From the NCBI GenBank assembly GCA_038087875.1, contig CM075996.1:436001-500000 (forward strand): a stretch of 64,000 nucleotides of DNA, read 5' to 3'. The notes under the pieces were generated by a model. It was not told the origin of the DNA. It was given only the letters and a program-made list of their open reading frames with translations, and ran no database searches. Source of the stretch: Malacoraja senta. Taxonomy: Eukaryota. Made by a program: the position numbers and the translations under genes. Of the stretch, positions 3,421 to 62,390 are shown piece after piece. Within the stretch, counting starts at the first letter, position 1, and each line of letters begins with the position of its first letter.

Positions 3421-5634
3421 TAGTTTGTTGATATGACCAGTCTTGTACGGGTCCCAGGCGCATGTAAGGGTCTAACCAATGCTGCGGTTTTCACTTCCAT
3501 TGGGCAGAATGTTCCATTAAAGAATGGGAGCTTTGAAAGTCATCAACGTCGTGAATAATTCATCAGATTGTGTGGCATCCCGAGTTGTGGAGTTAAATTA
3601 TTCAAACTTGTGTCAAATAATGACAAGCATCTTCACCGCCGTGGTGTTTGATGAAGGACGATCTCCTCCCCAGGGATCCGCCGGGCCAGCTCACACACTT
3701 GGACCCCGTATCCTCACTTTGAGAGACACAGCGCGGAAACAGGCCCATTCGGCCAAGCGAGTCCGTGCTGACCAGCGATCCCCGCACATTAACATTATCC
3801 TACACACACGAGGGACAATTTCTACGCTGGCCAAGCCAATTTACCTGCACACCTGTACGTCTTTGGAGTACCCTTCTACTCATATTGAGATTCATTATCT
3901 ACCCCCCTCCCCCCCCCCAGTCTCCAACTTCACACAGCACAGAAACCGGCCCTTCGGCCCAACTTGCCCATACCGGCCAAGGTGCCCCATCCACACATTA
4001 GTCGCACCAGCCCGGCGTTTGGCCCACATCCCTCTAAATCTTTCCTAGCCATCATGTACCTGTCCAAATGTCTTTTAAACTGTAGAAGCAAAGAACTGCA
4101 GATGCTAATTTATACCAAAGATAGACACATAAAGTGCTGGAGTAACTCAGCGGGTTCTGTCAGCATCCTTGGAGAAAATGGATGGATGATTGGGTCTGAA
4201 GAAGGGTCCCAAACCAAAATGTCACTTATCCTTTTTCAGCCAGGGATGCTGCCTGACCTGCTGAGTTATTCCAGCACTTTGTGTCTATCAAGTATCTTTT
4301 AAATTGTGTTACAGTACCTGTCCCAACTGCAGCTCGTTCCATATACCCACCACCACTGTATGAAGAAACTGCCCCTCAAGTTCCTGTTAAATCTTCTCCA
4401 TCTAACCTTAAACCTACATCCTCTGGTTCTTGAACCCCCAACTCTGGGTTAAAGACTCTCTGCATCTCCCCTATCTATTCCCCTCATGACCTTTTTATAC
4501 ACCTCTATAAGATCACAATAGACAATAGACAATAGGTGCAGGAGTAGGCCATTCGGCCCTTCGAGCCAGCACCGCTATTCAATATGATCATGGCTGATCA
4601 TCCCCAATCAGTACCCCGTTCCTGCCTTCTCCCCATATCCCCTGACTCCGCTATCTTTAAGAGCCCTATCTAGCTCTCTCTTGAAAGTATCCAGAGGACC
4701 TGCCTCCACCGCCCTCTGAGGCAGAGAATTCCACAGACTCCCTGGACTAGAGGGTGTGAGCTATAGGCAGAGGTTGAGTAGGCTGGGACTCGATTTCTTG
4801 AGCGCAGAAGGTTGAGGGGAGATCTTATAGAGGTGTATAAGATTATGAGAGGAATAGATCGGGTAGATGCACAGAGTCTCTTGCCAAGAGTAGGTGAATC
4901 GAGGACCAGAGGACATAGGTTTAAGATGAAGGGGAAAAGAATGGAAAGGAAAATGAGGGGTAACTTTTTCACACAAAGGGTGGTGGGTGTATGGCACAAG
5001 CTGCCAGAGGAGGTAGTTGAGGCTGGGACTATCCCAATGTTTAAGAAGCAGTTAGACATGTACATGGATATGACAGGTTTGTAGGGATATGGACCAAACG
5101 CGGGCAGGTGGGACTAGTGTAGCTGGGACATGTTGGCCGGTGTGGGCAAGCTGGGCTGAAGGGCCTGTTTCCACGCTGTATCGCTCTATGACTCTATGAT
5201 CTTGCGTTCCAAGGAATAGAGTCCGAGCCTGCCCGACCTCAGGCCCTCAAGTCCCGGCATCTCTCTCATTCCTTCCACACCTCGCCACATCCCTCAGTCC
5301 CGCAGCCTGGTTCAATGGATCAACAGGGTGACAGAGTGGGAGCGTTGCTGCCTTACTATGCCAGAGTACCGGGTTCAATCCTGACCTTGGGTGCTGTCTG
5401 TGTGGAGTTTGTACAATCTCCCCGTGACTGCGTGGGTTTTCCCCGGGTGCTCTGGTTTCTATCGACATTGCAAAGATTTGTAGGTTAATTGGCTTCCATA
5501 AATTGTCCCTAGTGCTTCCGATGGAACTAGTGTAAGGGGTGATCAATGGTCAGTGCGGGCTGAAGGGCCTGTTTCCACACCGTATCTCTGAAACTCCTCT
5601 CACTCACCAATAGGGCCGATTGTGTAGGCCAAGC

Positions 5635-6610
5635 TCTCAGCCCAGCCTCACTACTACACAGGCCCAGCCTCACTACTACGCAGGCCCCAGCTTCACAACC
5701 ATACAGGCCCCAGCTTCACAACTATACAGGCCGCAGCCTCACTATTACGCAGGCCCCAGCCTCACTACTACGCAGGCCCCAGCTTCACAACCATAGAGGC
5801 CCCAGCTTCACAACCATACAGGCCCCAGCTTCACAACTATACAGGCCGCAGCCTCACTATTACGCAGGCCCCAGCCTCACTATTACGCAGGCCCCAGCCT
5901 CACAACTGCGCAGGCCCCAGCCTCACAACTACACAGGCCCAGCCTCACTACCACACAGGCCCCAGCTTCACAACTATACAGGCCCCAGCCTCACTATTAC
6001 GCAGGCCCCAGCCTCACTACTACGCAGGCCCCAGCTTCACAACCATAGAGGCCCCAGCTTCACAACCATACAGGCCCCAGCTTCACAACTATACAGGCCG
6101 CAGCCTCACTATTACGCAGGCCCCAGCCTCACTATTACGCAGGCCCCAGCCTCACAACTGCGCAGGCCCCAGCCTCACAACTACACAGGCCCAGCCTCAC
6201 TACCACACAGGCCCCAGCTTCACAACTATACAGGCCCCAGCCTCACTATTACGCAGGCCCCAGCCTCACAACTACGCAGGCCCCAGTCTCACAACTACAC
6301 AGGCCCAGCCTCACTACCACACAGGCCCCAGCCTCACAACTACGCAGGCCCCAGCCTCACAACTACACAGGCCCAGCCTCACTACCACACAGGCCCCAGC
6401 TTCACAACTATACAGGCCGCAGCCTCACTATTACGCAGGCGCCAGCCTCTCTACTACAGAGGCCCAGCCTCATAACTACATAGACCCACCCTCACGACTA
6501 TAGGCCCCAGCATCACCACTACACAGGCCCAGCCTCACCACTACACAGGCCCAGCCTCACCACTACACAGGCCCAGCCTCACTACTGCACAGGCCCCACT
6601 CTCACCACTT
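5635..6610 (+). repeat. Minisatellite, 22-23 bp unit CAGGCCCCAGCCTCACTACTACG
   Basis: About 40 tandem copies of CAGGCC(C)CAGC(C/T)TCAC(T/A)A(C/T)(T/C)A(C/T)(A/G). Confidence 0.95.
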
Positions 6611-6764
6611 CATGGGCCGCAGCATCTCTGTACAAGTCCCAACCCCTGCTATGAACACAACCAAGCCTGTGACACCTCTCCACCGGGCCCCCCTCCGACC
6701 CCCCCCCCCCCACTCCACAGGTGGACAACCCAGGCCTCCTCAGCCTGCTTCTGCTTGCCCACAG

Positions 6765-7080
6765 GTACAACGGCCTCGCCCTGCCTCAGTACTACCACCC
6801 CGGGAAGGACGACGAGACGCCCTTCATCTGCTCCCTGTCCGGAGACAACGGGATCATGGGGTGCCACGAGATCCCGGCGCTGAGGGACAACGGGCACGAC
6901 TGCTGCCTGGACAAGGACGATTATTACTACTACGCCGCGCTGGGCCAGGAGCTCAACGTCACGGGGGGCTGTGTCAACTGGAACCGCTACTACACTGCGT
7001 GCCAGACTGGAGACAAGAACCCCCACAAGGGAGCCATTAACTTCGACAACATTGGCTACGCCTGGATTGTGATCTTTCAG
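6765..7080 (+). CDS. CACNA1I: Next internal exon of Cav3.3, domain I extracellular S5-P loop
   Basis: Acceptor ctgcttgcccacag at 6764 and donor gtactc at 7081. 316 bp; the phase-2 start completes CT+G (Leu) from the previous exon. Translates YNGLALPQYYHPGKDDETPFICSLSGDNGIMGCHEIP...CVNWNRYY...NPHKGAINFDNIGYAWIVIFQ. Confidence 0.95.
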
Positions 7081-8189
7081 GTACTCCTGACCGATTGATC
7101 TGGCGAACTCATTGCATGAGTTTCATAGAAACATAGAAAATAGGTGCAGGAGGAGGCCATTCGGCCCTTCGAGCCAGCACCGCCATTCATTGTGATCATG
7201 GCTAATCATCCCCAATCAATAACCCGTGCCTGCCTTCTCCCCATATCCCTTGATCCCACTAGCCCCTAGAGCTCTATCTAATTCTCTCTTAAATCCATCC
7301 AGTGAAATCCATCTGGGTGAAAAACGTTTTTTCTCACCTCAGTCTTAAATGACCTCCCTTTATTCTAAGACTGTGGCACCTGGTCCTGGACTCGCCCAAC
7401 ATTGGGAACATTTTTCCTGCATCTAGCTTGTCCAGTGCTTTTATAATTTTATAAGTTTCTATAAGATTCCCCCTCATCCTTCTAAAGTCCAGTGAATACA
7501 AGCCTAGTCTTTTCAATCTTTCCTCATATGACAGTCTCATCACAGCAGGGCCCACATGTGGTATGTGTCAACAGCAGTCGGCTGCCCTGCACTGTGCCAC
7601 CTTCTCTGTTGTGAAACTTAGAAACATAGAAACATAGAAAATAGGTGCAGGAGTAGGCCCTTCGGCCCTGAGCCAGTAGGCCGAAGCCTTGCATGTTCTC
7701 CCTATGACCGCGTAGGTTTTCTCCAAGGGATCCGGTTTCCTCCCGCAAGCCAAAGACGTTCGGGTTTGTACAGCAGTCAATGGTCTTCTGTAGAAAGTGC
7801 TTCTAATGTTCAGGGAGTGGATGAGAGAGTGGGATAACATATCATTAATGTGAATGGATGATCGATGGTTGGTGTGGACTCGGTGGGGTAAAGGGCCTCT
7901 TTCCATGTTGTATCTCTAAACTAAACTAAACACGAATAGAGCGGGTGTGGAGAGGATGTTTCCACTAGTGGGAGAGTCTAGGACCAGAGGTCACAGCCTC
8001 AGAATTAAAGGACGTTCTTTTAGAAGGAGATGAGGAAGAATTTCTTTAGTCAGTGGGTGGTGAATCTGTGGAATTCGTTGCCACAGAAGGCTGTGGAGGC
8101 CAAGTCGATGGATATTTTTAAGGCAGAGACAGATAGATTCTTGATTAGTACGGATGTCAGGGGTTATGGGGGGAGAAGGCAGGAGGATA

Positions 8190-9989: not shown

Positions 9990-10609
9990 TATTCATGTCT
10001 TCCAGAGGTGCTGCTGGCCCTTCAGCCCACCGAGTCCGTGCCGACCCAGCGATCACCTCGTACACTCGCACTATCCTACACACTAGGGACAATGTACAAT
10101 TTCACCAAATCCAATTGACCTACAAACCTATATTTCTTTGGAACTACTAGAGAGACAGTTGACGGCACGGAGAGACGGCACCCGGGACAGGCTGGGTTAG
10201 CACCCCAGTCTGTGTCTTTCGTGAGAAAGTCACCCGACAAAGCTACGGAAAGGCCTAATGAACCACCGTGGCCTAAAAATCCATCAGGCGAGAATGAAAT
10301 GCTCGGAGAAGGAGAAAGAGGCGCAGCGCAGCGCACAGGCCTTGAACCTGTGAGGCAGCATCTGTGGAGAGAAGGAAATAGGTGAAGAAGGGTTTCGGCC
10401 CGAAATGTTGCCTATTTCCTTCGCTCCATAGATGCTGCCGCATCAGCTGAGTTTCTCCAGCATTTTGTCTACCTTCGATTTTCCAGCATCTGCAGTTCCT
10501 TCTTCGACATTTTGTCTACTCCTCTGCAAAATCTCCTCGACGATGACTAAAATGGCTTCTGAATGATTGCTTTCCCGACTATGTGAACTGTGATATTACA
10601 CCGGAGAGT

Positions 10610-10815
10610 TATGTTTAAGAAAGAACTGCAGATGCTAGAAAAATTAAAGGTAGACAAAAATGCTGGAGAAACTCAGCGGGTGAGGCAGCATCTGTGGAAG
10701 GAATAGGTGACATTTCTGTCTGAAGAAGGGTTTCGGCCCGAAACGTTGCCTATTTCCTTCGCTCCATAGATGCTGCCTCACCCGCTGAGTTTCTCCAGCA
10801 TTTTTGTCTTCCTTA
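10610..10815. mobile_element. Penelope-derived fold-back element, second subfamily (GGGTTTCGGCCC stem II, GUU triplet)
   Basis: Inverted arms around CTGAAGAAGGGTTTCGGCCCGAAACGTT at 10720-10747. Confidence 0.8.
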
Positions 10816-12405
10816 GTCATCCTCATCTCAGTTTATTTGGATGATCTATAAAGCTTCAGACGAGAAGTAGATGCAGACAGATACTTGGAGCGGTGGACGT
10901 TTGGAGTGGTTTAACCTTTCGAGTTAGTTTCACGGAGACTGTTTTCCAGACACCGGATCGTCTTTCCGATTTTTCCTCCATGGTGACCTTTCTTCAGTCC
11001 TTGTTTCCCTTCATCAGTGTCGTTGCCCCGTCCCTGCTCAATTAATTTGTGACCTCTGACAAGCGCAAGGTGAAGCATCTAGGCAGGCAGGCAGGCCGTC
11101 GAGTCGCCAAGCCGGAGCAGGCCATGGACAATGCAGGTAATTGAGATCAGTGTGCAACGTTTGGTGCAGATGTGGTGGGCTGAAGGGTCTGTGTTGGTGC
11201 CCTGCAACTTTCTGATTCTATGAGTCTCTCTGCCATTATTAATATTCTCTCACAAAGGGGGTGCCCAAAATTGCACGCAGAATTCAAAAGGCATCCTTCC
11301 GGGATCATTCTCAATATATTCTCTTTATCCTGTATCTGTACACCGTGGACGGCTTGATTTGAATCCGCTGACTGATTTGAATCCGCTGACTGACTAGCAC
11401 GCAACAAGAAAGCTTTTCACTGTACCTCAGTACATGTGACAATAAACTAAACTAAATTAAACTAAATATTGTACACTGAGGCCATTAGAAATCCCCAATT
11501 TTATATTTTCTGGGAATTCTGCCTCGCACTGTCAACGCTTTCCATTATCTTTGCATTGAAGTTATTCACTCCTTCGTTGCTTATTCTTACAAAATGTCCT
11601 CCTCATTCTTTTGCGGATTAAATTAGATCTATTATCTGTGCGCCCATTGGAACAACTCTCCTGAAATACTTCACAACTCTCAATCGTGTTTAGTTTTAGT
11701 TTAGTTTGGAGACACAGCACGGAAACAGGCCCTTCGGCCCACCGTGTCCGCGCCGACCAGCGATGCCCGCACATTAACGCTACCTTATCGTGTTCGGTGC
11801 TCTTTATTATCCGTGTAGCTGTATGGCGACCACACATTTCACTGTACCAATTGGTACACGTGACAAATAAATGTATCTTGTATCTTGTATCTTGTATCGT
11901 GTACCTGACGCACACTAGGGATCATTGTACAAATATACCGAGCCAATTAACGTACAGACGTCTTTGGAGTGTGGGAGGAAACCGGAGATCTCGGAGAAAA
12001 CCCACGCAGGTCACGGGGAAAAACATACAAACTCCGCACAGAAAGCACCCGCAGTCAGGATCGAACCCGGGTCTCTGGCGCTGTCAGGAAGTCGCTCTAC
12101 CACTGCGCTACCGTGGCTCCCGTATTCGCCAAACCCTCTTGCGTTTTAAGATTCTTTTATGATTATGATCATAGTTTGGCCCTTCTGTATCGACCAAGGA
12201 ACCAGCTCTGTTGAACCAAGGTGTATCCCTTTGAATCACATCCAATCCAACCCTTTGTTCAAACTTGAAAAAACTTAGAGATACACACAGCGCTGGAGTA
12301 ACTCAGCAAGTCAGACAGCATCTCTGGAGAAAAAGAATGGATGACGCTTCTGGGTTGGGACCCTTCTTCAAACTCCTTCTCCCTAGTTTAACTTTGAAAA
12401 ACCAC

Positions 12406-13395: not shown

Positions 13396-14959
13396 CAATT
13401 GGGTTTCCAACAATTTCTGTCTTTGTTTGAACTCCTCAGTCTTCGATTGCTGAGCAAATAAAACAGAAGGCTAGAGATACTCAAGGGGCCAGGCAGCTTA
13501 TGCAGAGGCGGAAACAAAGTTACAATAGAGGAGGATTTGAGCCTGAAGAAAGGTGCCAACCCGAAATGACATCCATCCTTTTTCTCCAGAGATGTTGTCT
13601 GACCCACTGAGTTACTCCAGCACTGTGTGTCTATCACCCTCGAACTGTAGTATTCCCCATTTGTAACTATAGTATTTACATCAAATTGAGTTGATGATCA
13701 ATAGCAGTCCTAGGATGTTGATGGTGGTGGGGTCAGTAATAGCTATGGCAATGAATGTCCTTCAATAGAGAGAAGTGGTTGAGGTTCTCTCTGACAGGAC
13801 CGGCATTGTCTGGCAGTGAAAGGCACCTGGATTGGCACTGATCTCCAGTACTATCTGTGTGGAGTCTGCATGCTCTCCCAGTGACCGTGTCAACTTCCTC
13901 CGTGATTCCTCCCAGTTGCTAGATTAATTGGCTGCTGTAAATAGTCCCTGGTGGTAGATTTGCGAGTCATACAGTGTGGAAACAGGCCCCTTCACTCCAT
14001 CCTACCCACACCAACCAACATGTCCCATCGACACTAGTCCCACCTACCTGCATTCGGCCCATATCCCTCCAAACCTGTCCTATCCATGTACCTGCTTAAA
14101 TGTTTCTTAAGCATTGTGATAGTACCTGCCTCAACTACCTCCTCCGGCAGTTCGCTCCATACGCCCACCCACCCTTTGTGTAAAAAAGTTACCCTCAAGT
14201 TCCTATTAAATCTTGCCCTTGCCCACTCACCGTAAACCTATGTGCTCTGGTTCTCGACGATAGACACTGGAGTCACTCAGCGGGACAGGCAGCATCTCTG
14301 GAGAGAAGGAATGAGTGACGTTTGGGTTCGAGACCTCTGGTTCTCGATTCCCCTACTCTGGGCAAGAGACTCTGTGCGTTCACCCTGTCTATTTCGCTCA
14401 TGAATCTGGGGAAAGTTACATAGACACATAGACAATAGGTGGAGGAGGAGGCCATTCGGCCCTTCGAGCCAGCACCGCAATTCATTGTGATCATGGCTGA
14501 TCGTCTCCAATCAATAACCCGTGCCTGCCTTCTCCCCTTATCCCTTGATTCCACTAGCCCCTAGAGCTCTATCTAACTCATGGTTGATGGGGGTGTGGGG
14601 AGGTTTAGTGTCGGGTTAGAGGAGCTGGGCGATTGATGGTCTGTGCAGTCTTTGCGAGATAAAGGGACCGTTTCCTGTTGTTTACTCTCCGAATCCTTGG
14701 GCCAAATCAAATGAACTTCCTCTCAGTGTTGCTTAACCTTCCGCTTTCGTTTATTGCAAGAGGAAGAAGGTTTTACACCTTAAATGCTGTTTATTAACAA
14801 CAACAATAATAACCATCTCTGTAACAATCTTTATGTGGCGACATGACCCAAGGCATTTCAAGGCAGCATTATCAAATACAAATTGATACCAAGCTTTACA
14901 AGGCTTGGAATGGCATGGGTATAGATTGTTCACAGAGGTAGGCTTCATGGAGCTTAGCA

Positions 14960-19026: not shown

Positions 19027-20624
19027 TTACAGCGCCAGAGATCCGGGTTCGATCACCTACCACGGGTGCCGTCTGTACAGAGATTGTACGTTCTCCCCGT
19101 GACCGCGCGGGTTTTCTCCGGGCGATCCGCTTTCCTCCCACACTCCAAAGACGTACAGGCTTTGTAGGTTAATTGGCTTTGGTAAAATTGTAAAATCGGC
19201 CCTCGTGTGTGTTGGATGGTGCTAGTGCACGGGGTGGTCGCTAGTCAACGCGGACTTAGTGGGCCGAACTTGCTATACCAGCACGATAACATCCCGTGAT
19301 TCCCGTCTGACTCCCAAATTCCTCAAAACATCGACATTCCCCAATCTTCCACCTTTGGAAAAATATTCTGCTCTCCTAATCTTTCCTGCGAAATTGGATG
19401 AACAGGTTTCTCCAACTTCTGCTCCACTTGACGTGTTTCCATTCTCATTGACCTTTGCCCCTAGTTCACTTTCCGACCTAGATTTGCGTGGACAATAAAT
19501 CTGCACAAGTTACATTCATTCCCTTAAGTGACACCTTCTGGGTCACAAAAAGACAAATTCAAGTCCCAGTTTGGATCCCAGTAGGAACAAGAACATGCTA
19601 AACCCAAAATAGAGCATAGAACGTTAAGCAGTATAGCACAGAAGCAGGCCCTTCGGCCCACATGATCTGTGCCGACCATTTCAACCAAATTAAGACAACC
19701 CTATGTGCCTGCATATGATCCATATCCCACCATTCCCTGCATAAAACAACATTATTTTGCCTGCTTCCACCACCATCCCTGGAGTGTAGAAGGTTGAGGG
19801 GGGACCTCATTGAAAGTTACCAAATAATGATAGGCATAGATAGAGTGGATGTGGAGAGGATGTTTCCACTGGTGGGAGAGTCTAGGACCAGAGGTCATGG
19901 CCTCAGAATTAAAGGGCGCTCTTTTAGAAAGGAGGCGAGGAGGAACCTCTTTAGTCAGAGGGTAGTTAATCTGTGGAACTCATTGAGGGCTGTGGAGGCC
20001 AAGTCAGTGGATATTTGTAAGGCAGAGATAGACAAATTCTTGATTAAGAATTATGGGGAGAAGGCAGGGAAATGGGATTGGGAGGCAGAGATCAGCCAGG
20101 GTTGAATGGCAGAGTAGACTCAATGGGCCGAATGGACTAATTCTACTCCTATAGCTTGTGAAGTTGTGAACCATCCGAGACAGTGTGTTCCAGGCACCGA
20201 CCACTCTCTGTAACAAAAACTTTCCCCTCACATCTCCTTCAGACTTTCCTATTCTCATCCTAAACCTACGCCCTCTAGTATTTGATATTCCCACCCTGGG
20301 AAAAGGATTCTGACTGTCCACCCTATCTTTGCCACTTGTAATTTTATAAACTCTTGACAGTTCTCCCCTCAGCCTTCTATCCTCCAGAAAAGACAATCCA
20401 CGTTTTTTCCAACCTCTGCCTTATCATGATAAATGACCTTTTTATTCCTATTCTCTATTTTCAGTTCAATATTTCTTGGTGATAAATTACTGCAAGCCCA
20501 ATACTGTGTGATGGCCTGTGTGAAACATTATCGGATAATTTTTAATAGCAACTCAACATCCTTCTACCCACCCCTCCTCAATCTACACTGCAACCTCATC
20601 GCTTAATGGAATTGACAAGCATAA

Positions 20625-21070
20625 TTCCCCTTCCCATTCCCACACTGACTATTCTGTCCGAGGCCTCCTCCATTGTCAGAGTGAGGCCAATCGCAAATTG
20701 GAGGAACCGCACCTGGTTCTGGAACAGCATCATATTTCGCTTGGGCAGCTTACCACCCAGTGGTATGAATATTGATTTAACTTCAAGTAACCACTGCACT
20801 TCCTATCTCTCCATCCCTCCCCCACCCAAGTCGCACCAGGTTCCCGTTCTCACCCAGCAAACCGCTAACAATGGCCTGTTTCCTTTATCATCGTTACTTC
20901 TATTTGCATATCTTTCATTCTTCTGTTCTATATCTCTCTACATCACTGTCTATATCTCTCGTTTCCCATTCCCCTGACTCGTCTGAAGAAGGGTCTCGAC
21001 CTGAAACGTCACCCATTCCTTCTCTCCACAGATGCTGCCTGTCCCGCTGAGTTACTCCAGCTTTTTTTTG
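20625..21070 (+). mobile_element. Penelope-like element 3' end (GIY-YIG C-terminus plus hammerhead-bearing tail)
   Basis: Remnant of SHSHTD..GLLHCQSEANRKLEE..IFRLGSLPPSGMNID, followed by CTGAAGAAGGGTCTCGACCTGAAACGTC at 20983. Confidence 0.8.
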
Positions 21071-23144
21071 TCATTTTTATCCTTTACCTTTCCATCCATT
21101 TTTGAACTGTAGAATCATGTTTGCCCTTTCTCAATCTCTAAGAACCATTCTACCGAACATTTTTTTCAACAATACATTACCTATCCTTGGGGCATTGAAT
21201 CTTAATTTTGCACAAGATCGTGAGTACAGGGCCTTATCTTTGCAATTCACAAAATCAGGTAAATCAGGCTCAAACAAGGAATGACCGCATAAATAGTGAA
21301 AGAAAATAAGTAAATAATAGCAATTGGTAATGAGGATCTATCTGAAATGTTTAGTTTAATTTTAATTTAGAGATACAACGTGGGAACAGGCACATTGGCC
21401 CAGCAAGTCGGCGCAGACCAGCGATCACCTATACACTGGTTCTATCCGACACACTAGGGCCAATTTACAGAAGCCAATTAACCTACAAACCGGCACGTCT
21501 TTGGAGTGTGGGAGGAAACCAGAGCACCATGAGAAAACCCACGTGGTCACAGGGAGAGCGTATAAACTCCGCACAGACAGCACCCATAGTCAGGATTGAA
21601 CCCGGGTCACTGGCGCGGTAAGGCAGCTGCACCACTGTGCTGCACATATCAGAAAAAAAAGCAAAGTTAGGAGATTATTTGGAAAGATGAGATACAAGCA
21701 TGGTCAATTACAGATGTTTTAAAGTCACATCTGTATTACGAGTCGTAGAACCAAACAAATCCACAGTCCTGTTGGAATGTTGACTGATCACCGTTAGACT
21801 ATTGGAGATGAGGCAGAAGATTGATCAAGCCCCCATTGAATATCAGAACAGGCTTGATCGCTACTCCTTCTCCTATTTTGTACATTTTTATGTCTTACAA
21901 CCTGAGGCTACAGATCAGATTTTGCGTGAAAATGGCATCCGAGACATCTTAACTTTGACCAGTTTTTCCTGCTCCCGGTTAAAGAATTGGTCTGGCCACA
22001 AAATGGCTGCTTCTAGGTCACCCCTGGCCCAGCTGTTCAACGAAACAAAATGTGGGATTGGGTGGAAGAGCTGCAACGTTGATATATAGCACCCTTCATA
22101 ACAGAGTGTGGAAATCCAGCCAAATCTTCTTGGAATGTAGGTTGCCAGAGGCTACAGTTTATCTCTTGAGAGAGTTTGTGTGTGTATGTGTGCTCGCCTG
22201 TGGCACTCAGCAATATCTCACCTTCCTGCAAGTGTTAAGGAAACAGATGGAGAGCGTTGAGCTCGATTTTCTTCAGTATTACAGCCAAAATTCAGGGATG
22301 GTTTCTCAGACTAATATCCGATAATGCGAATAATAATAACACTTGGGAGTTTTGGATATCCAGGAACATTAGATAGCCGGGAACAATAGATATGAGGAAA
22401 AATTGACCGGAGGGATTTAAAATAAAGAATGATAGTAACCTGGTCATAATGGATATCTGAGAATAGCAGAATGAATGATTTAAAATAATGGGAATGCAGG
22501 AATGTTATCTGGGAAACAAAAAATGCTGGAGAAACTCAGCGGGCGAGGCAGCATCTATGGAGAAGAAGGGATTGTCGAAGTTTCGGGTCGAGACCCTTCT
22601 TCAGACTCTTCGTTCTTCTGACGTTTCTCGACCCGAAACGTCGCCTATTCCTTCTCTCCATAGATGCTGCCTCACCCGCCGAGTTTCTCCAGCATTTTGT
22701 GTCCACCTTCAACTGTTCCAGCATCTGCAGTTTTTTCTTAAACATGTTATCTGGTAATAATAGATAGCCAATAGTGATTTGAAATATAGAATAATAGATA
22801 TTTGGGAGTAGATAATATTCACGATAAACAATAGACCAAGCAATGGATAATCTATTGTTTACATGGTGAATGAGAGTTAGTCAGGAGTTATCGAATCTGG
22901 GCTAATGTGTACCTAGGAGTTATTTCACAGAGAATAATTGATATCTATAAATGATTGTATAAGTCAAGTGGATAAATGGTGGTATTTGTACAGAATAATG
23001 AGCAGTCAAATATAATTGCATAAAGATGATAGATTGACACCTGGGATTGATAATGTGGTGAAAAATGGATCTTTGGATGTGAATAATCGGGGAGTTAAAG
23101 CTGGGAAATGGGACTGAAAGTGAAAACCGATTGAAGAAACTGAC

Positions 23145-33583: not shown

Positions 33584-33657
<74 letters not shown>

Positions 33658-43880: not shown

Positions 43881-45634
43881 ATTTAGTGGGAGATGCATGG
43901 AGGTTCTTTAGTTTTGTTGGGTACCACTTCCACTCTCTGCTCGAGACCGTTTCCCATGGCACCCAGCAGGCAGTGATTAATGGGCTCCCTCGAAGAGGAT
44001 GTGGGGGTGATCTTATAGAGGTGTACAAAACCATGAGAAGAATAGATCTGTTCAATGGACAGAGGCTTTGACACGGAGTAGGGGAATCAGGAGGCAGTAG
44101 ACATAGGTTTAAGGTGAGAGGGGAAGATTTAATAGGAACCTGAGGGGAAACGTTTTTACACAAAGTGGTGGTGGGTGTATGGAACAATCTGCTGGAGGAG
44201 GTAGTTGAGGCAGGGACTATCATAACACTTTAGAGACATTTGGACAGGTACATGGATTGGACAGGTTTAGATGGATACAGGCCAAACGCATGCAGGTGGG
44301 ACTAGTGTAGATGGGGCATGGTAGACAGCAATGGTAAGTTGGGCTGAAGGGTCTGTTTCCATGCTGTGTGATTCTATGTATACTTGCTTACACATGTGCA
44401 CAACATTTTGTGATCGAAACATTTCTATGAGACTTTATGAAATTAATGAAATAAGAAATTAAAAAACAAAATGGTTCAAACTGCTGTTATTTTAGATAAA
44501 TTATCATATTTAGAGAGGCAGCCATTTTGTAACAATCTGTCAGTGTAATAATCACATTGGATGTCTTTTTCTTGGCTATTTGTTGTAATATTCCCGAGAA
44601 TGAGGAGAGAGATGCATAAACTGCCCTCATACCTTGTTGATACCACTATGCTGGTATCCTTGTACACTAAAATCACAAGGGTGGCGCACAGCGGCGCAGA
44701 GGTGGAGTCGCTGCCTCACAGCACGAGAGGCCCAGGTTGAATCCTGATTACGAATGCTGTCTTTACGGAGCTTGTATGTTCCCCCCTGGGACCGCGTGGG
44801 TTTTCTCTGGGTGCTCCGGTTTCCTCCCACATTGCAAAGACGTGCAGGTTTGTAGGTTAATTGGCTTCGGTAAAAGTGTAAATTGTCCCTAGTTTAGTTT
44901 AGTTGAGTTTAGAGATGCAGCGCGGAAACAGGCCCTTCGGCCCCACCGAGCGATCACCCCGTACACTTACACTATCCTACACACACTTAGGGACAATTTA
45001 CACATCCACCAAGCCAATTAGCCTACAGACCTGTACGTCTTTGGAATGTGTGTAGGATAGTGGTAGTGTAGGGGTTGGCTCAGACGTGGTGTATCTCTAA
45101 AGTCTAAAGTCTGAAGTCCAGTGAAACTAGCCACTGCTGATTGTTCTCTCTCTTGTGGGAATGGTTCAGTCTCTTGTGAGACTGGCCTCTGACACCTGGG
45201 CAAGCTGAGACTGGGTCCTGCCCCTCTATACAAGGGTGTAACAAGGTACATCTTCTTCTTAGGCCCCCCCCCCCCCTCCTCGGTCACGGCTGACCATGGG
45301 TGTCTCCAGGGTTGGAGGACGCCTGTGCGTGACTTTGTTTAACGTGGGGAGACTGGTGCACAGACAGTCCTTGACAGATCTGGCTCAGGATCCAGTGGCA
45401 TGGAGTCCCAGCCGTTGTGACGCTCCACTGAGGTCAGCCTTCGTCCTCCACCTGTTGAGGTCTTGGTTGGATTGCTCTTTGTCAGAGTCCTCCCCCTCGA
45501 CCTTACCGCCACGGGGGGCCCTACCAGGAGCATAGCTCCAGACGGCATCGCTCTCAGGATCTCAGGACCACACAAGCTTCTCCACCACGACAAGGTGACA
45601 ATCCACGGAGAAATACATAGATCTATACAATCTA

Positions 45635-46110
45635 TACAACCTGATCTCCCGGTTGCTAAACACTTTAATTCTCCTTCCTATTCCCACACTGACGTTTCTG
45701 TCCTAGTTCTCCTCCATTGTCAGAGTGAGGCTAAATGCAAATTGGAGGAACAGCATCTCATATTTCGCTTGGGCAGCTTACAGCCCAGTGGTATGAATAT
45801 TGATTTCTCTCACTTCAAGTAACCCCGGCATCCCCTCTCTCTCTATCCCTCCCCACCCAAGTTGCACCAGCTTCTTGTTCTCACCCAACACACAGCTAAC
45901 AATGGCCTGTTTCCTGTGTCATCGTTACTTTTTTGTAGATCTTTCATTCATTGTTCTTCATCTCTCCACATCACCGTCTGTATCTCTCCTTTCCCTTTCC
46001 CGCGACTTTCAGTCTGAAGAAGGGTCTCGACCCAAAACGTCACCCATTCCTTCTCTCCAGAGATGCTGCCTGTCCCACTAAGTTACTCCAGCGTTTTGTG
46101 TCAATCTTCC
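45635..46110 (+). mobile_element. Penelope-like element 3' end
   Basis: QPDLPVAKHFNSPSYSHTDVSVLVLLHCQSEAKCKLEEQHLIFRLGSLQPSGMNIDFSHFK plus tail. Confidence 0.85.
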
Positions 46111-49122: not shown

Positions 49123-52100
49123 ATGAAAACAATATCCACCATCGCATCACTGATGATTGAAGTAGTCTGGTTGGGCCGCAAGTGGTCAGAATGGATTTAC
49201 CCTGGTTGGATTTGGCACAGGGCCATACCCTGAAGACCCACATTCTAGAACGAGCTGCACTTTCATGTCAGGTTGTCCAGTAACGGACTCCGACGGCATG
49301 TACCCGTGGAAGTCCGTCACCGATCAACTTGGCACAAAGTGGAGCTCGTTCCAGAGGGTACGTCTTCGAGGAGGCAGGAAACATGTTCCTCGAGGTTGGG
49401 GGAGTCCAGAACCAGGGTCCACACAGTTTAAGAATAAGGAGTAAGCCATTTAGAACGGAGATGAGGAAGAACTTTTTCACACAGAGGGTTGTGAATCTGT
49501 GGAATTCTCTGCCTCAGACGGTGGTGGAGGCCGGTTCTCTGGATGCTTTCAAGAGAGAGTTAGATAGGGCTCTTAAAGATAGCGGAGGTCAGGGGATATG
49601 GGGAGAAGGCAGGAACGGGATACGGATTATGGATGATCGGCCATGATCACAGTGAATGGCGGTGCTGGCTCGAAGGGCCTACTCCTGCACCTATTGTCTA
49701 TTGTCTATTGTCTTAGTTTGAATACATTGTTTGAAGCAGTTTATTGTAACAGCCAAATTAACGCAGAGGTAACCCCCACAACCAGCAAGGTGACAACTGC
49801 TCAGGTACGGTGGTGCAGCGGTAAAGTTGCTGCCTTACAGCGCCAGTGACCCGGGTTCGATCCTGACCTCAGGTGCTGTCTCTGTGGACTTTGTACTTTC
49901 ACCCTGTGACCGCGTGGGTTTTCTCCAGGTGCTCCGGTTTCCTCCCACACTCCAAAGACATACAGGTTTGTAGGTCAATTGGCTGTGGTAATGTTGTGAA
50001 TTTATTCCTAGTGTGCAGGAGAGAGTTAGTGTACGGGGTGATCACAGTTCGGCACGGACTCGGTGGGCTGAAGGGCCTGTTTCCACGTTGTATCTCTAAA
50101 GTCTAAAGTCACTCCACAGTTCATGGGTCTTTTCAACCTCGCTGAAGAAGGGTTCCAACCCGAAACATCACCCATTCGAAACAACCCAGTCTGAAGAAGG
50201 GTTTCGGCCCGAAACATCGCCTAATTCCTTCGCTCCATAGATGCTGCCGCACCCGCTGAGTTTCTCCAGCACTTTTGTCTACCTTCGATTTTCCGCATCT
50301 GCAGTTCCTTCTTGAACACCCATTCGTTTTCTCCGGGGATGCTGCCTGACTTACTGCGTCACTCCAGCTGAGTCTATCTCCCTCCCAATACACACATTGC
50401 CTACTCGTTGAAGGTATGAGAGAGGGAGATGAAATCGATGGCCAATCGGTGAACGAAAGTGTTTCTGAATAATCCCCACACCAACACAAAAATGCATCCA
50501 TCGTTCAAATACAAATACTCTGAAGGTCTTGCTCTCGTGTTCCGATGTTTACGCTGTAGATGCTCTTCTCCCATTAGGAGCCGTTTTCGCATATTTACAA
50601 ATTGGCAGATATATCCCAGCTTTGATTAGTCGCAAAACAACACTACACAGAGAGAAAGACCTTTTTTACTTCAGGGAGGATGGTGATTTGCTTAATCAGT
50701 GCTAGGAGCTAATTAGTGTTAGATCGCTTGTTGGTGCAAATAACTCCTGATCCTGCTGCCGAGTTTTAGATATTAGTTCAGCCATGAAGTGAACAGCTCT
50801 GACATCTATGCCATGTTCGGTCCTCTGCGGCCATTTGGAATTGTGCTAAAGAAGGGTCTCGACCCAAAACATCACCCATTCCCTCTTCTCCAGAGATGCT
50901 GCCCGACCCACTGAGTTACTCCAGCTTTTTTGATTAGTTTAGTTTAGAGATACAGTGCAAAAACAGGCCCATCGGCCCACCGAGTCCGCACCGACCAGCG
51001 ATCCCCACACATTAACACTATCCTACACACACTAGGGACAATTTACACAGACACCAAGCCAATTTACCTGCATACCTGTACGTCTTTGGAGTGCGGGAGG
51101 AAACCGAAGATCTCGGAGAAACCCCACGCAGGGCATGGGGAGAACGTACAAACTCCGTACAGACAGCACCCGTAGTTGGGATCGAACCCGGGTCTCCGGC
51201 CCTGCGAGCAATGTAAGGAGGCAACTCTACCGCTGCACCAACATGGCCACCCTTTGTGTCTATCTTCTTGTGCTTATGAAAATGGATAGACCCATTGGGA
51301 TTCTTTAGACCCGATAAGAAGGTGGTTTAGCCTATTAGCTACTATGAAGGGCGGCACAGTGGTGCAGTGGTAGAGTTGCTGCCTTCCAGCGCCAAAGACA
51401 CGAGTTCAATCCTGACAGCGGGTGCTGTCTGTGTGGAGTTTGTACGTTCTCCCTGTGACCAAGTGGGTTTTCTCCAGGTACTCCGGTTTCCTCCCACACT
51501 CCAAAGACGTGCAGGCTTGCAGCTTAATTGGCTTCAGTAAAATTGTCAATTGTGTAGGATTGTGCTGGTGTATGGGGTGATCGCTGGTCAGCGTGGACTC
51601 GGTGGGCCGAAGGGCCTGTTTCCGTGCTGTATCTCTAATCTCTGAAGTCTCAAGAAATGTGCCGGATTTTGGGACTCTGTCCTGCAGGATTGAATGATAG
51701 AACATAACATATGGTATGAGGGCAGAGACAGGTCAAACACCCCTTTGACCTATACCTTGTACCTTCCGAAGAGTCACCAAGGAAGTTGGACAATTTTATA
51801 CCGGACAATGTTCACATTTTTATCAAGCCAATTAATCTAGTCAATTAACCTACAAACCTGTACATCTTTGGAATGTGGGAGGAAACCGAAAATCTCGGAG
51901 AAAACCCACGCAGGTCACGGGGAGAACGTACAAACTCTGTACAGACAGCGCCCGTGGTCAGGATCGAACCCGGGTCTCTGGCGCTGCATTTTTTGCTGTA
52001 AGGCAGCAACTCTACCGCTGCGCCGTCGTGATTTCAACCAAGTCACTTCCCTTGGTTCTTCAGCATTACTCATTCAGAATTCATCAGAAACACAACTAAC

Positions 52101-52971: not shown

Positions 52972-53503
52972 TAACCTTACCAGTGCATGACGTAAACTCA
53001 ATTTGACTTCAACCTGACTTCCCTGTTAATAAGGCCTGTTCTGATGACAAGTCATAATTCTATGGCATTAAATGGCATTCTCCCCTCTTCCTAGATGCCT
53101 CCTGACCCGCTGAGTATTCTAAACATTTTCTGTTTTGATTTCAGATTTCCTGCCACCGTAAGGTTTGTATCTCACATTGACGATGTTGTTTTCTCTCTAT
53201 TTCTGTTCTCCTTCTTCTCCTCATTTACACTTCCAGCAGACAGATCAGTCGCGATTAACGAGCCTTCACCACCCTCTCTCAGCCAACATCAACACCGCCC
53301 GCGTCATCGAAGATAGACACAAAATGCTGGAGTCACTCCACAGGTCAGGCAGCATCTCTGGAGAAAAGGAATCAGTGATGTTTCTGGTCGAGACCCCTTC
53401 CTCAGACTGGCAGACTTCAGACTTCAGCACTCTGAGGAAGGGTCTCGACCCAAAACGTCACCTATTCCTTTTCTCCAGAGATGCTGCCCGAAATGCTGAG
53501 TTA

Positions 53504-53824
53504 AACCCCTGGTCCACGGTACAAGTTCATTCCAAGAGCTCTCCCGAGTTTGCCCTGATTCGAACTCGGAGATTTACGTTAATGGCCACTCGTCGGTACT
53601 CGGGGCTCTCGTGGACATTTTTCATCATGTTGAAAAATCTTCACGAGTCTTCCCGTGCTTACCTGCCGTTAGCGAGTCTTCCCGAGTACCTGCCGTTAGC
53701 GCTAAGATACGTCCCCGAGCTCCGACGTACCCGCTACGTTCATTCTCCGTGCTTACCACAAGCTTGATTTTTTTTTAAACTCGGGAGAGCTCTTGGAATG
53801 AACTCGCACCGTGGGACAGGGCTA
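53504..53824. mobile_element. PIF/Harbinger-like MITE, family C (opposite orientation to 39080)
   Basis: Reverse complement of 39080-39409 with a degenerate left TIR; flanks TTA/TAA. Splits gctgagTTActccagc of a Penelope-derived unit. Confidence 0.85.
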
Positions 53825-54190
53825 TAACTCCAGCATTTTGTTTCCATCTTCAGTGTAAACCAGCATCTACAGTCCCTTCTAACACACCACTTGTGCCATT
53901 CTGTTTCTCTTGGTCTCCACTCCATCATCGACACCCCCCTCACCCTCTCCAACCCACACCCCACCCTAACAACCTTCTCCGCAACTTGCAAACTGTTTGC
54001 TATTTAACTCTCCTCAGTTTGGATGAAGGCGTATTGACCTAAGTTTTGACCTCTCTGTGCTTTCTCTCTCCACAGACGCTGCCTGTCCTGCCGAGCGCTT
54101 GCAGCATTTTCATGTTGGTTCACGTTCCCTGCCACTCACTCGCTCACACGGGAAAAGCTCACTTACTTCTCTCTGTTTCTCCTTCAACAG

Positions 54191-55178: not shown

Positions 55179-55220
55179 AATGAGTCTGAAGAAGGGTCCC
55201 GACCCGAAACGTCACCTATT
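55179..55220 (+). ncRNA. Candidate minimal type I hammerhead ribozyme in a Penelope-derived unit
   Basis: AAUGAGU-CUGAAGA-A-GGGUC(CC)GACCC-GAAAC-GUC-ACCUAUU. Intact core, stem II, palindromic ACGU helix III, GUC triplet at 55211-55213. Helix I pairs 6/7 including one GU. Confidence 0.55.
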
Positions 55221-55625
55221 CCTTCTCTCCAGAGATGCTGCCTGACCCGCCGAGCTACTCCAACATTTTGCGTCTATCGTAGGTAAACAGAGCTTAGCTG
55301 TAGATCACTTGTGACCCAACATAACAGTATAGCAGGCTAAATGTGTAGGTAGGAACTGCAGGTGCTGGTTTACACCGAAGATAGACACAAAATACTGGAG
55401 TAACTCAGCGGGACAGGCAGCATCTCTGGAGAGAAGGAATGGGTGTCATTTGGGGTCGAGACCCTTCTTCAGTCCGAAGAAGGGTCTCGACCCGAATCGT
55501 CATCCATTATGTGTAGGAAGGAACTGCAGATGCTGGTTTAAAGCGAAGGAAGACACAAAATGCTGGAGGAACTCAGCGGGACAGGCAGCATCTCTGGAGA
55601 GAAGGAATGGGCGACGTTTTGGGTC

Positions 55626-55663
55626 GAGGTCTGAAGAAGGGTCCCAACCCGAAACGTCACCCA
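55626..55663 (+). ncRNA. Candidate minimal hammerhead ribozyme at a fold-back centre
   Basis: GGU-CUGAAGA-A-GGGU(CCCA)ACCC-GAAAC-GUC-ACC; 3-bp helix I. Confidence 0.5.
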
Positions 55664-57545
55664 TTCCTTCTTTCCAGAGATGCTGCCTGTCCCGCTGGGT
55701 TACTCCAGCATTTTGAGTCTCTCTTCGTCGTCCAGTATAGCAGGCTTGCGGGCTGAGTGGTCTCCCCCTGGTCCGTTAGCACACAAGCTGGTGCCAGCGC
55801 AGGCTGGGAACGCATGGTCGCTTTGATGTGTCGCCGCTGTGGCGATCCAGCGGAGGTTGTCCCACTGTCGAGAGGAGGCGTGAAGATGCGGCGCGGGTCC
55901 TGCCAGCCAACAACACTCGATTGATTAATAAATGTCCGCGATCGAGTTGCAAGACGGGTCACACAATCGAGGAGGTTTGGTTACCTCGCATACCACAAGG
56001 AATCGGCTCACCCGACTGCTGCTAATGAGAGTGCTTGTCTCGAGGCCAGCCAGTGCTGTTTGTTCTGGACTATCTTACAACAAAAGACTCATTGTGTCCC
56101 AAACACTTGGCACGCGGCCCCTGCCCACATGGCATCAAGCTGCAATGTTACAACCAAAGCAGAACTGAGTTGGCTTTCCAGCCCAGCCAAACTTAATGCC
56201 CAAGCTGTCGTCTGAATGCGGAGCTGCTTAAACAGGCAGCTCGGATGGAGGCCGTTCGGCCCACTGTGGTGGTCATGATAACTTACAATAGACAATAGGT
56301 GCAGGAGTAGGCCATTCGGCCCTTCGAGCCAGCACCGCCATTCAATGTGATCATGGCTGATCATCCCCAATCAGTACCCCGTTCCTGCCTTCTCCCCATA
56401 TCCCCTGACTCCGCTATCTTTAACTTGAATAATTAGTGCCCCCCCCCCCCCCCCCCCCTTCCTCCTCTCCACACTCCTGCCTGTCTTTTCACACTGTGCT
56501 GCAAAGGGCGTCTTCTCATAAGGTCATAAGGAATAGCATAAGGAATGGCGGAGTACACTTGATGGCCGAATGGCCTAATTCCTCACGAATTAAGCCATTC
56601 GGCCCATCAAGACTACTCCGCCATTCAATCACGGGTGATCTATCTCTCCCTCCTAACCCCATTCTCCTGCCTTCTCCCCATAACCTCTGGTCACCTGTAC
56701 TATCATTCTGTAATCAAGAATCTATCTATCTCTGCCTAAAAATACCCACCGACGGCCTCCACAGCCTTCTGTGGCAAAGAATTCCACAGATTCACCACTT
56801 CTGACTGAAGACATTTCTCCTCATCTCCTTCCTAAAAGAACGTCCTTTAATTCTGAGTTCTCGAAACGACTGAATAATCAAAGGTCGAGATACAGTGGAT
56901 GTGGAGAGGACATCCCCGCTAGTGGGAGAGCCGATGGCCAGAGGGCACAGCTTTACAATAAATGAGCATACCTTTAGGAAGGAGGAATTTCTTTAGCCAG
57001 AGAGTGTTGAATCTGTGGAATTCTTTGCCACAGACGGCTGTGGAGGCCAAGTCATTGGGTATTTTTAAAGTGGAGGTTGACGGTTTCGTGATTAGTACGG
57101 AGGTCGAAGGTTATGGGAGAAGGCAGGAGAATGGGGTTGAGAGGGAAAGATAGATCAGCCATGATAAGCTCATGTCAAAGGAGCAGAATTAGGCCATTTG
57201 GCCCATCGAATCCACTCCGCCATTCAATCATGGCTGTTTTGTATCATGGTGAGGACTACGAGGTCAGTGGGTTTAAAGAATCACTTTGTAAGAGCGAGTT
57301 TACTTAAGTAAGTAAGTAAGTAAGTAATTTTTATTTATATAACACTTTAAAATCAAATCACGTTGAGGCCAAAGTGCTTTACAGAAAAGAAATTAAGAAA
57401 TTAAGAAATTAAGTCGCCTATTACTTAAGACGGGTATATGTTTCTTTCTGCTATTTTCCATATCGTCATCCCTTTCCCATTGTTCTAACCGTGTATTGCG
57501 TCCTTCCTGATCTTCTGCCCAGACCTCACTCCCGGCCTGAAGCCG

Positions 57546-58049: not shown

Positions 58050-58440
58050 GCTGGTGAGAGATAGGTGATGTTTCGGGTTGAGACCTTTCTCCAGACTGAG
58101 AGTGAGGGGAGAGGAAAATGAGAAGTATGAAAATGTACATAGAAGAAATGAATGAATGAAAAGAAATGCGATAGGAGAAATCGAAGCCAGCAACGGAGCT
58201 CAAGGAATGGTGGAGCCCACAATGCTCCATTGTTGGCTGTGGGGAAGGTGCTAACGCGTAAAACTCAGCAGGAGGACAGTGGAACTCGTACGACGACTAG
58301 GGTGGGGGGAGGGATGGAGAGAGAGGGGGGGGGGGGTGTGCAAGGGTTACTTGAAGTTAGAGAAGTCAATCTTCACACCGCTGGGCTGTAAGCTGCCCAG
58401 GGAAAATATGAGGTGCTGTTCCTCCAATTGGCGTTTGGTC
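58050..58440 (-). mobile_element. Penelope-like element 3' end
   Basis: KRQLEEQHLIFSLGSLQPSGVKIDFSNFK plus a degenerate tail. Confidence 0.75.
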
Positions 58441-58799
58441 TCATTCTGTGGAGTCTGTTGGGGGAGTCCAGAACCAGGGGCCACACAGTTTAAGAATAAG
58501 GAGTAAGCCATTTCGAACGGAGACGAGGAAACACTTTTTCTCACAGAGAGTGGTGAGTCTGTGGAATTCTCTGCCTCAGAGGGTGGTGGAGGCAGGTTCT
58601 CTGGATGCTTTCAAGAGAGAGCTGGATAGGGCTCTTAAAGATAGTGGAGTCAGGGGATATGGGGGAGAAGGCAGGAACGGGGCACTGATTGGGGATGATC
58701 AGCCATGATCACATTGAATGGCTCCAAGGGCCGAATGGCCTACTCCTGCACCTATTGTCTAGCGTCTTGTGGGAGCTCTTGAGGAAGGTTTATTTACTT

Positions 58800-61700: not shown

Positions 61701-62390
61701 TAAGTTTAGTTTAGTTCAGATACAAAATGCTGCAGTAACTCAGCGGGTCACACAGCATCTCTGGAGAAAAGGAATTGGTGACATTTCGGGTCGAAACCCT
61801 TTCTTCAGACTGAGGATTTAATTTAGTTTAATTTAAATTATTGTCACATGCATCAAGACACAGTGAAAAGCTTTTGCTGCATGCTATCCCGTCAGCAGAA
61901 AGACGATTACAATCGAATCATGCACAGTGTACAGATAGATAAATGATAAAGGGAATAACATTTAGTGCAAGATAAAGCCCAGTAAAATCCAATTAAAGAT
62001 AGTCCAAGGGTCTCCAATGAGAAGGTAGACGGTAGCTCAGGATTGCTATCAGTTGGTAATAGGATGGTTCAGTTGCCTGATAACAGCAGGGAAGAAACTG
62101 TCCCTGAATCTTGAGGTGTGCGATTTCACACTTCTGTACCTCTTGCCCGATGGGAGAGGGGAGAAGAGGGAGTGGCCGGGGTGCGACTGGTCCTTGATTA
62201 TGCTGCTGGCCTTGCCGAGGCAGCGTGAATTGTAGATCGATTCAATGGAAGGGAGGTTGGTTTGTGTGATGAAGTGTGCGTCAGTGTTTATTGGGGCCCG
62301 TTGGTACTGTACTGTGTTACCTGTTACAGTGGAAATACATGGGTCTCTGAAAGTGTCACTGTCTACAGAGAAGGGACTGCAGAGTGTGTT
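58800..62390 (+). repeat. Highly diverged ~30-bp minisatellite interrupted by younger transposons
   Basis: Recurrent GTGTGTCAGTAT(T)(T)ACAGGGGGT(C/A)(C/T)CTGG motif, clearest at 59030-59175, 60170-60310 and 61040-61210. Confidence 0.7.
60494..60994. mobile_element. PIF/Harbinger-like MITE, family E, with a nested CR1 3' fragment (~60553-60845)
   Basis: AGCGCCTGTCCCACTTTCCCGAGTTATTCAC...GTGAATAACTCGGGAAAGTGGGACAGGCCCT; TSD TTA/TTA. Confidence 0.85.

Follow-up and report, generated by a model that had tools for sequence, protein, structure and literature searches.

A 64,000-nucleotide stretch of the Malacoraja senta genome (NCBI GenBank assembly GCA_038087875.1, contig CM075996.1, positions 436,001 to 500,000; hereafter, the window) contains a plus-strand gene for a CACNA1I-like T-type calcium channel, one exon of which (6772..7086, +) has alpha-1I as its best match (E = 1.5e-51). 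Within the introns of this ion-channel gene lie many short units of a repeat that carries a hammerhead ribozyme motif. A profile search of the 64,000 bases found 59 arms of this one repeat, solo or paired, 32 on the plus strand and 27 on the minus strand. Together they total 5,391 bases, which is 8% of the window and a density of approximately one arm per kilobase. The pattern CTGANGA..GAAA has 26 matches in the window, 19 of which were assigned to the repeat family from a reading of their flanks, and a stricter pattern of core plus NNTH occurs 20 times, compared with a mean of 0.87 (maximum, 5.0) over 200 shuffles. An initial annotation of this DNA had described a minimal type I hammerhead motif of Penelope origin, two subfamilies, and long hairpins in ion-channel introns, and these descriptions are borne out. 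The cores that it named are present on the plus strand (10720, 20983, 26598, 36956, 55186, and 55631) and on the minus strand (30116-30139 and 34073-34096), and all seven of the hairpins that it named are real.

In the numbering used here, the A of AGTCTGAAGA is +1, the hammerhead core spans +4 to +31, and the cleavage site follows +31. The 3' ends of the arms fall into two classes approximately 35 nt apart, short (+92..+102) and long (about +128..+135), and the units are about 100 or 130 bases in size. None of 21 long arms runs on into shared body sequence; their sole downstream matches are neighboring arms. There are two subfamilies, A and B, and both are found joined to endonuclease remnants. 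Target duplications of 8 to 17 nt were recognized for 9 of 24 solos and for 4 of 12 pair events, compared with 9 of 120 random pairs at a score of ≥8 (the tally leaves out four matches internal to the repeat and one 7-nt match). Because target duplications flank both solos and hairpins, each is a single insertion event. The motif CCAGCAT is present twice in the tail, 30 nt apart (repeat positions +52..+59, +78..+84, and +108..+116); AGATGCTG could base-pair with either one, and the two 3' ends each fall some 20 to 25 nt past a copy, which makes the motif a candidate start signal for reverse transcriptase (RT). Variant columns recur across copies.

The origin of the repeat is indicated by four copies located 3' of the C-terminal portion of a Penelope-type GIY-YIG endonuclease, with 3' untranslated region (UTR) before +1. 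The copy at 45619..46109 (+), of subfamily A and 5' truncated, consists of an endonuclease C terminus (45619-45819), 3' UTR, an inferred +1 at 46011, a core at 46014-46041, and a short end. A second 5'-truncated subfamily A copy, at 20623..21071 (+), has an endonuclease remnant, UTR, core 20983, and a short end, and a 5'-truncated subfamily B copy at 23137..23548 (-) has the same parts with core 23237; a decayed inverted long arm (23567-23671, +) adjoins the 5' side of the latter. The fourth copy, at 58057..58448 (-), is decayed and retains an endonuclease remnant and core, with the tail lost. The GIY-YIG motif itself is absent from the window, and Pfam gave no matches on the three remnants scanned; the endonucleases of relatives have weak Pfam GIY-YIG matches (E = 0.004 to 0.05) that are below the curated cutoff. 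The remnant matches proteins of Leucoraja, Rhinoraja, and Amblyraja, and there are relatives in other sharks and rays as well; those found are partial (234 to 624 amino acids). One of them, P0005, is 59% identical to the window remnant over 58 amino acids and has a Neptune-type Cys linker (Cx4Cx2C) between RT and endonuclease. Judged from its endonuclease linkage, tail, and inverted structure, the repeat is identified as pseudo-long terminal repeat (pLTR) fragments of an endonuclease-containing (EN+) Penelope-like element. The element is probably, though not certainly, of the Neptune clade; the linker was seen in P0005, and its region lies outside the window. The units are the pLTR of a skate Penelope-like retrotransposon, mostly inserted without the coding body, and we are fairly confident that they are dead by-products.

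The arms have a sharp 5' edge that lies 3 nt ahead of CUGA. When the 5' starts of 57 arms were assigned by script, 27 were at -3..+5, 16 were at +6..+27, 1 was at +28..+35, 6 were later, and 7 arms had upstream sequence; by eye, up to 3 of the 57 start at +28..+35, the zone of the cleavage site. We also aligned public data, the assembled contigs of four runs from related animals that have 18 to 57% of words in common with the window, onto the copy at 45619..46109. The figures from these runs rest on the best 24 of 2,858 loose-end rows and the best 15 of 789 joints, and the counts are lower bounds in three of the runs. All listed 5' loose ends fall at 46009-46013, with at least 737 to 1,778 contigs per row in the large runs, and the rows at 46009 come largely from subfamily B bodies. 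In all eight of the listed consensus rows that begin at 46011 or 46012, the letter ahead is G, while the element itself has C at -1 and the flanks are A/T rich; one listed tandem joint also carries a single G before 46011. An extra G before the end of a cDNA can come from a copied cap. Summed contig depth climbs 36- to 116-fold from the bin at 45981-45999 to the arm peak in the four runs. The sequence TCA(+1)GTC fits the initiator consensus perfectly, a match that was noticed after the fact and that has a background of 1.0% (loose) or 0.12% (strict) per position. For Drosophila Penelope, an internal promoter with an initiator in the pLTR has been described (PMC2377424). The ACGT at +27..+30 is only partly like the RGACGTGY of PMC2377424, and we do not rely on it as a downstream promoter element.

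Two other origins of the edge were considered and rejected. A splice acceptor does not fit the loose ends in the contigs of the four runs, which are without a common upstream exon, and cleavage by another hammerhead fold at the NUH triplet that immediately precedes +1 (CUC in subfamily A and AUC in subfamily B) was rejected by inspection, since helix III and helix I cannot pair. The available sections of the literature searched (the repeat databases Repbase and Dfam and subscription journals were outside the search) gave no account of a fixed, G-marked 5' edge and no paper on a cap-derived G; the supplements of PMC11167929 and bioRxiv 10.64898/2026.07.22.740005 may already show 5' boundaries or cartilaginous-fish families.

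Almost half of the arms are paired: 26 arms form 13 head-to-head pairs. Among 18 neighboring arm pairs that are <60 nt apart, 13 are head to head, 3 are tail to tail (nesting or chance), and 2 are on the same strand (one nested insertion). The central junctions of the 13 pairs all differ within the window. Eight of the 13 combine a long and a short arm, and in all eight of these the short arm starts at -2..+2, while the long arm starts at +12 or later in six; in 6 of 8 clean pairs, one arm, starting at +12 or later, is without CUGA. Pair partners carry common subfamily letters and, in 10 of 11 pairs, differ less than the median; even so, the difference amounts to 7 to 26%. In six of the eight long and short pairs, each arm holds bases that are missing from its partner, and these pairs therefore cannot be copy-back products of one strand but need two templated syntheses. 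Opposite-strand joints listed from the public-run contigs have one side at 46008-46014 and a variable other side. The best-supported of these was found in at least 11, 21, 19, and 1 contigs of the four runs, while the three large runs each had 26,042 to 38,226 contigs that aligned in part, and there was no dominant joint among the best 15 of 789. None of the 33 tandem-repeat rows for the window involves the unit and there are no head-to-tail arrays in it; a few tandem joints occur in contigs of the relatives.

The minimal type I motif is present in the repeat as CUGANGA, GAAA, NUH, helix II, and a palindromic helix III (ACGU/AACGUU), and among 32 arms that span the core, 17 retain the core letters and 8 retain the full motif. 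Over the 17 cores, helix I has 2 bp in 12, 3 to 4 bp in 2, and 0 to 1 bp in 3, which falls short of 4 to 5 bp. With helix I included, the model energy is less favorable (-3.9 rather than -4.8 kcal/mol), and this helix is not extended by upstream UTR sequence. In four folded hairpins (-126 to -161 kcal/mol), the predicted probability of helix II is ≤0.05 in every case; helix II is also weak in 3 of 4 folded nonhairpin copies, so folding does not single out the hairpins. Both caveats of the initial annotation, a short helix I and sequestration of the core, are supported. A crude dimer fold of two 38-nt copies gave an alternative duplex and not a hammerhead dimer. Rfam, which the initial annotation had put forward as a check, returned no hammerhead among 13 matches at E ≤ 1, and the core pattern had no matches in viral and metagenome contigs. 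The copies run uncut through the GUC cleavage site, and this continuity indicates that their templates were uncut. An RNA that starts at +1 would have a helix I limited to 2 to 3 bp, and the prediction is accordingly that its ribozyme either is inactive or depends on protein. In metazoans, minimal hammerheads are poor cleavers even in dimeric form (PMC4209133), and no cleavage was seen for 8 of 9 dimers from Xenopus (bioRxiv 10.64898/2026.07.22.740005); work by Lunse et al. on dimeric cleavage is cited in a review (PMC6765202). As a separate observation, the arm at 53305-53408 has ACTG after the cleavage triplet, which gives a 4-bp helix I and is possibly the trace of a better-formed ancestral ribozyme.

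Taken as a whole, the arms are best explained, in our judgment, as run-off cDNAs from the 5' end of the element mRNA, two of them joined in each hairpin, and this explanation is probable rather than firm. Its central part, that the 5' edge is a transcription start and the units are run-off cDNAs, is a proposal drawn from DNA copies and contigs, and we consider it somewhat better than even. The mRNA would start at +1, a predicted capped 5' end, and the G often found ahead of it would be the copied cap. A ribozyme in such an RNA that is inactive or in need of protein would spare the cap. On the uncut mRNA, RT would have two internal start sites, a short one about 95 nt and a long one about 130 nt from the capped 5' end; from either site in the 5' pLTR it would run off the cap to give a solo. 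A hairpin would consist of two cDNAs, one from the short site and one from the long site, primed on opposite strands of one staggered cut and joined head to head with the loss of a few bases. The truncated copies that bear body sequence would stem from occasional RT starts at the 3' pLTR. By analogy with the anole element, the 5' pLTR may be preferred since only it is followed by open reading frame (ORF) sequence bound by the protein. The anole Poseidon PAc element has two internal RT starts, both strands are primed, and a dimer is predicted; its uncleaved RNA is the substrate in vitro, its ribozyme needed protein, and binding requires ORF sequence beyond the RT starts (PMC11167929). An ORF requirement of this kind would favor the 5' copy and leave solos as dead ends. 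Penelope-like elements have an optional 30- to 40-bp tail and inverted pLTRs (PMC8557442 and PMC3846280), and tail ends about 35 nt apart in the skate repeat match this tail, which the anole study ties to the two internal RT starts (PMC11167929).

Several observations weigh against the run-off explanation. The consensus agreement for the loose-end G is only 0.31 to 0.34, so the G is a plurality. Contig depth is not copy number, and the endonuclease peak is only 6- to 12-fold under the arm peak. The test of the G within the window is weak: six arms start at +1 and five of them are preceded by G, and one such G is target DNA. The arm with the clearest duplication (27396..27527) has an extra A and not G, five window arms start at -1, and the 16 of 57 arms that start at +6..+27 need resection or ordinary truncation. 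Among the pairs, two are short plus short or decayed, and three have an arm cut by later events and are not classifiable. No full-length element was found in the window or among the partial relatives. Finally, the core is somewhat better preserved than other parts of the repeat. In a paired test of 27 arms with 8 columns dropped, core mutation was 3.0% compared with 5.2% elsewhere (P = 0.16), and with polymorphic columns kept it was 3.0% compared with 8.2% (P = 0.002); an unpaired test (P = 0.03, 10 columns dropped) is biased by differing copy sets, and the paired test is preferred. The excess core conservation that the initial annotation had proposed to look for thus appears with the polymorphic columns kept and is not significant with columns dropped.

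One alternative is that the 130-nt long unit is a self-renewing nonautonomous element, a Penelope-dependent short interspersed nuclear element (SINE) that has the whole internal promoter and both RT starts and whose solo copies are transcribed and mobilized in trans, with hairpins made anew at each insertion. In its favor, the 5' edge is fixed and arms without body sequence are in great excess (about 50 of 57 in the window, and likewise in the public-run contigs), several recurring variant columns point to many source copies, and nonautonomous, pLTR-forming Penelope derivatives are described in Chlamydomonas (PMC8557442). Against this, subfamilies A and B are both attached to endonuclease remnants, and the anole RNA needs ORF sequence beyond the RT starts that is absent from the solos (PMC11167929). 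We regard a SINE as unlikely. A wider proposal seems to us a doubtful extension: transcription of the skate element would begin 3 nt ahead of its hammerhead, so that the core would double as the internal promoter and be silenced at the cap; the 130-nt promoter-plus-primer cassette, reaching from that start to the outer RT site, would be a self-renewing, Penelope-dependent SINE made by RNA polymerase II; and each hairpin would record two run-off cDNAs that a dimeric enzyme had primed at a single cut.

It also seems improbable that the arms are products of ordinary 5' truncation in copies made from the 3' pLTR. On that view, the 5' edge would come from polymerase stalling or RNA processing in the neighborhood of the hammerhead, and the inverted pairs from self-priming at palindromic sequences. 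Truncation and inverted copies are the norm in such elements (PMC8557442), and self-priming at palindromic junctions has been proposed (PMC3846280). The candidate causes are structure, the palindrome TCAG-T-CTGA, on which one junction (55471-55475) lies, and a 3' splice-site-like tract ahead of the core, pyrimidine rich and ending in CAG at +2. However, stalling gives no cause for an A+1/G+2 edge with a foreign G, and a splicing version would predict an edge at +3 with a common upstream exon, whereas the listed loose ends at 46013 are without consensus (agreement, 0.32 to 0.36). In addition, self-priming of a single cDNA cannot yield arms that each have unique bases, as six of eight pairs do.

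The initial annotation had read the fold-backs as an amplified retrozyme-like unit that self-cleaves and circularizes, and one of its own tests was whether identical junctions recur. The core motif is real and far above chance, helix III is palindromic (ACGU/AACGUU), one joint recurs in at least 11 to 21 contigs of three runs, and pLTR-derived retrozymes are reported in vertebrates, including one cartilaginous fish (bioRxiv 10.64898/2026.07.22.740005). The statement that stem II differs between the subfamilies with its pairing kept is true by wobble, a point in favor of this reading; in both helix I and helix II, the subfamilies differ by wobble changes on one side of a pair (helix II, U-A to U.G and C-G to U.G), with no two-sided pair changes between the subfamilies and hence no covariation. 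The suggestion of potential cleavage sites on both strands was overstated, given the 6 of 8 clean pairs with an arm lacking CUGA. Five of eight complete cores are on the host sense strand, which in these small numbers is no sign of purging. With 13 of 13 junctions different, no tandem arrays, a 2-bp helix I in 12 of 17 cores, a complete motif in only 8 of 32 arms, and helix II predicted at ≤0.05 in all four folded hairpins, amplification of the fold-back as a unit is very improbable, and junction diversity has already largely refuted it.

The skate repeat resembles known minimal hammerheads in its type I core, the extra base before helix II, the palindromic 15.2-16.2, and the C-terminal endonuclease, and also in its dispersed single motifs and close opposite-strand pairs, which have been ascribed to truncated elements (PMC4209133). 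It differs in having a 2-bp helix I, compared with 4 to 5 bp in Schistosoma (2 bp is noted for D. virilis), a helix II of 4 to 5 bp rather than 7 to 8 bp, a density of about one arm per kilobase, and a sharp 5' edge beside the core. Animal non-LTR retrozymes are likewise noncoding, pLTR related, and dispersed as monomers with a type I hammerhead, but they have head-to-tail repeats of 150 to 450 bp, ≥2 ribozymes, and circular RNAs, while the skate units are 100 to 130 bp and solo or head to head (PMC7229834 and bioRxiv 10.64898/2026.07.22.740005). The skate family is not a non-LTR retrozyme: it forms no tandem arrays, and its unit is not bounded by cleavage sites. The closest likeness is to the inverted pLTRs of EN+ Penelope-like elements and anole Poseidon PAc, with head-to-head arms, a tail on one arm, two RT starts, an uncleaved template, and target duplications near 9 to 10 bp (PMC3846280, PMC8557442, and PMC11167929). 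Unlike in these elements, the body between the repeats is usually missing in the skate family, and the inverted pair is the whole insert. The available sections of the literature searched, within the scope given above, held no description of this repeat family in skates.

Two further systems bear on the proposed run-off synthesis. Minus-strand strong-stop DNA of LTR elements is a short run-off cDNA to the capped 5' end, and in L1 twin priming two primers at one cut give an inversion. The proposed synthesis would resemble the first in running off a cap and the second in using two primers at one cut, and it would differ from them in having no tRNA primer, in drawing both arms from the same RNA region, and in the direct integration of the products.

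Hammerheads of the minimal type were already known in Penelope repeats, as were the inverted repeats and the tail; what is added here is a very large natural record of insertion products. This record bears on two questions that are open in print, the regeneration of the pLTR, for which no obvious mechanism is named (PMC2377424), and the function of the hammerhead in Penelope-like elements, which is called unclear (PMC8557442). If the 5' edge is the cap site, then the pLTR would simply run from the start site to the RT start, most insertions would be run-off products, inverted repeats would come from two separate priming events and not from self-priming, and cleavage would have no part in making insertions. 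With 13 hairpins in one gene and 8% of the window, the family would be a likely major source of intronic double-stranded RNA in skates.

The pairs are distributed along the window as follows. At 4088..4290, a long arm (-) is joined to a short arm (+) from +2, with a 13-nt target duplication (1 mismatch); at 10617..10819, a long arm (-) from +22 is joined to a short arm (+) from +2 with core 10720; at 26477..26697, a long arm (-) from +12 is joined to a short arm (+) from -1 with core 26598; and at 38869..39080, a long arm (-) from +18 is joined to a short arm (+) from +2. The order is reversed at 22510..22739, where a short arm (-) from +1 after a G precedes a long arm (+) from +15 (14-nt target duplication, 1 mismatch), and at 43648..43878, where a short arm (-) from -2 precedes a long arm (+) that includes decayed UTR of about 13 nt (duplication of 11 nt, 1 mismatch). 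Two nested pairs occupy 55348..55735. The inner pair (55515-55735), which lies inside the right arm of the outer one (55348-55508), has core 55631, a long arm that starts at +16, a short arm that starts at +2, and a target duplication of 10 nt (1 mismatch). Three further pairs are those at 10350..10503 (left arm cut short, right arm long), at 31654..31824, where a long arm (-) from +8 faces a shortened right arm that begins at +3, and at 53305..53879, in which the long arm is split by a terminal-inverted-repeat element (53498-53830). An old pair at 13461..13642 has a decayed left arm and a short right arm from +1 after a G, and a small coreless pair at 26040..26134, with arms from +71 and +46 and both ends short, is an exception to the long and short rule.

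Solo units include a short unit at 55183..55280 (+) that starts at +1 after a G and has intact core 55186, a long subfamily B unit at 36953..37082 (+) with an exact 13-nt target duplication, and a long unit from +1 at 27396..27527 (-), whose extra A was noted above and which has a 17-nt duplication with 1 mismatch. At 50141..50380 (+), a subfamily A solo is interrupted by a long subfamily B solo (50188-50312; exact 10-nt duplication). Other solo arms and fragments, between 12271 and 61811, begin at 12271, 14252, 15066, 16779, 18587, 24299, 25504, 30040, 30851, 31882, 32109, 33996, 35886, 37162, 37727, 46796, 47833, 50846, 53087, 54065, and 61715. The repeat has inserted into its own copies twice (50141-50380 and 55348-55735), each time just 3' of the core (about +30 to +40) and with target duplications. 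The sequence AACCC separates +1 from the target flank in two independent solos of subfamily B (36948-36952 and 50183-50187); it fits neither known upstream UTR, is reverse complementary to the first helix II strand, and forms a joint of the type at 26594. An older third variant with TATCCATGTTCTCC after the core is present at 13540, 15066, 18587, 32109, and 35886 and also as a loose end in run X1.

Pieces of the element's endonuclease are included in the public gene models P0002, P0006, and P0010 of skates and rays (neuromedin-U receptor 1, DCC, and a kinase-domain protein), which may reflect annotation artifacts or exonization. The window also contains noncoding elements with long terminal inverted repeats that resemble miniature inverted-repeat transposable elements (39077-39480, 53498-53830, 41615-42131, 60493-60995, and 34925-35565), two of them inside or adjoining hammerhead hairpins. 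Other repeats are a 23-bp minisatellite of 43 copies, which lies immediately ahead of the exon near 6.7 kb, a pair of long CA/GT tracts, and a tandem region rich in G (5641-6623, 33108-33673, 62384-62894, and 1342-2532).

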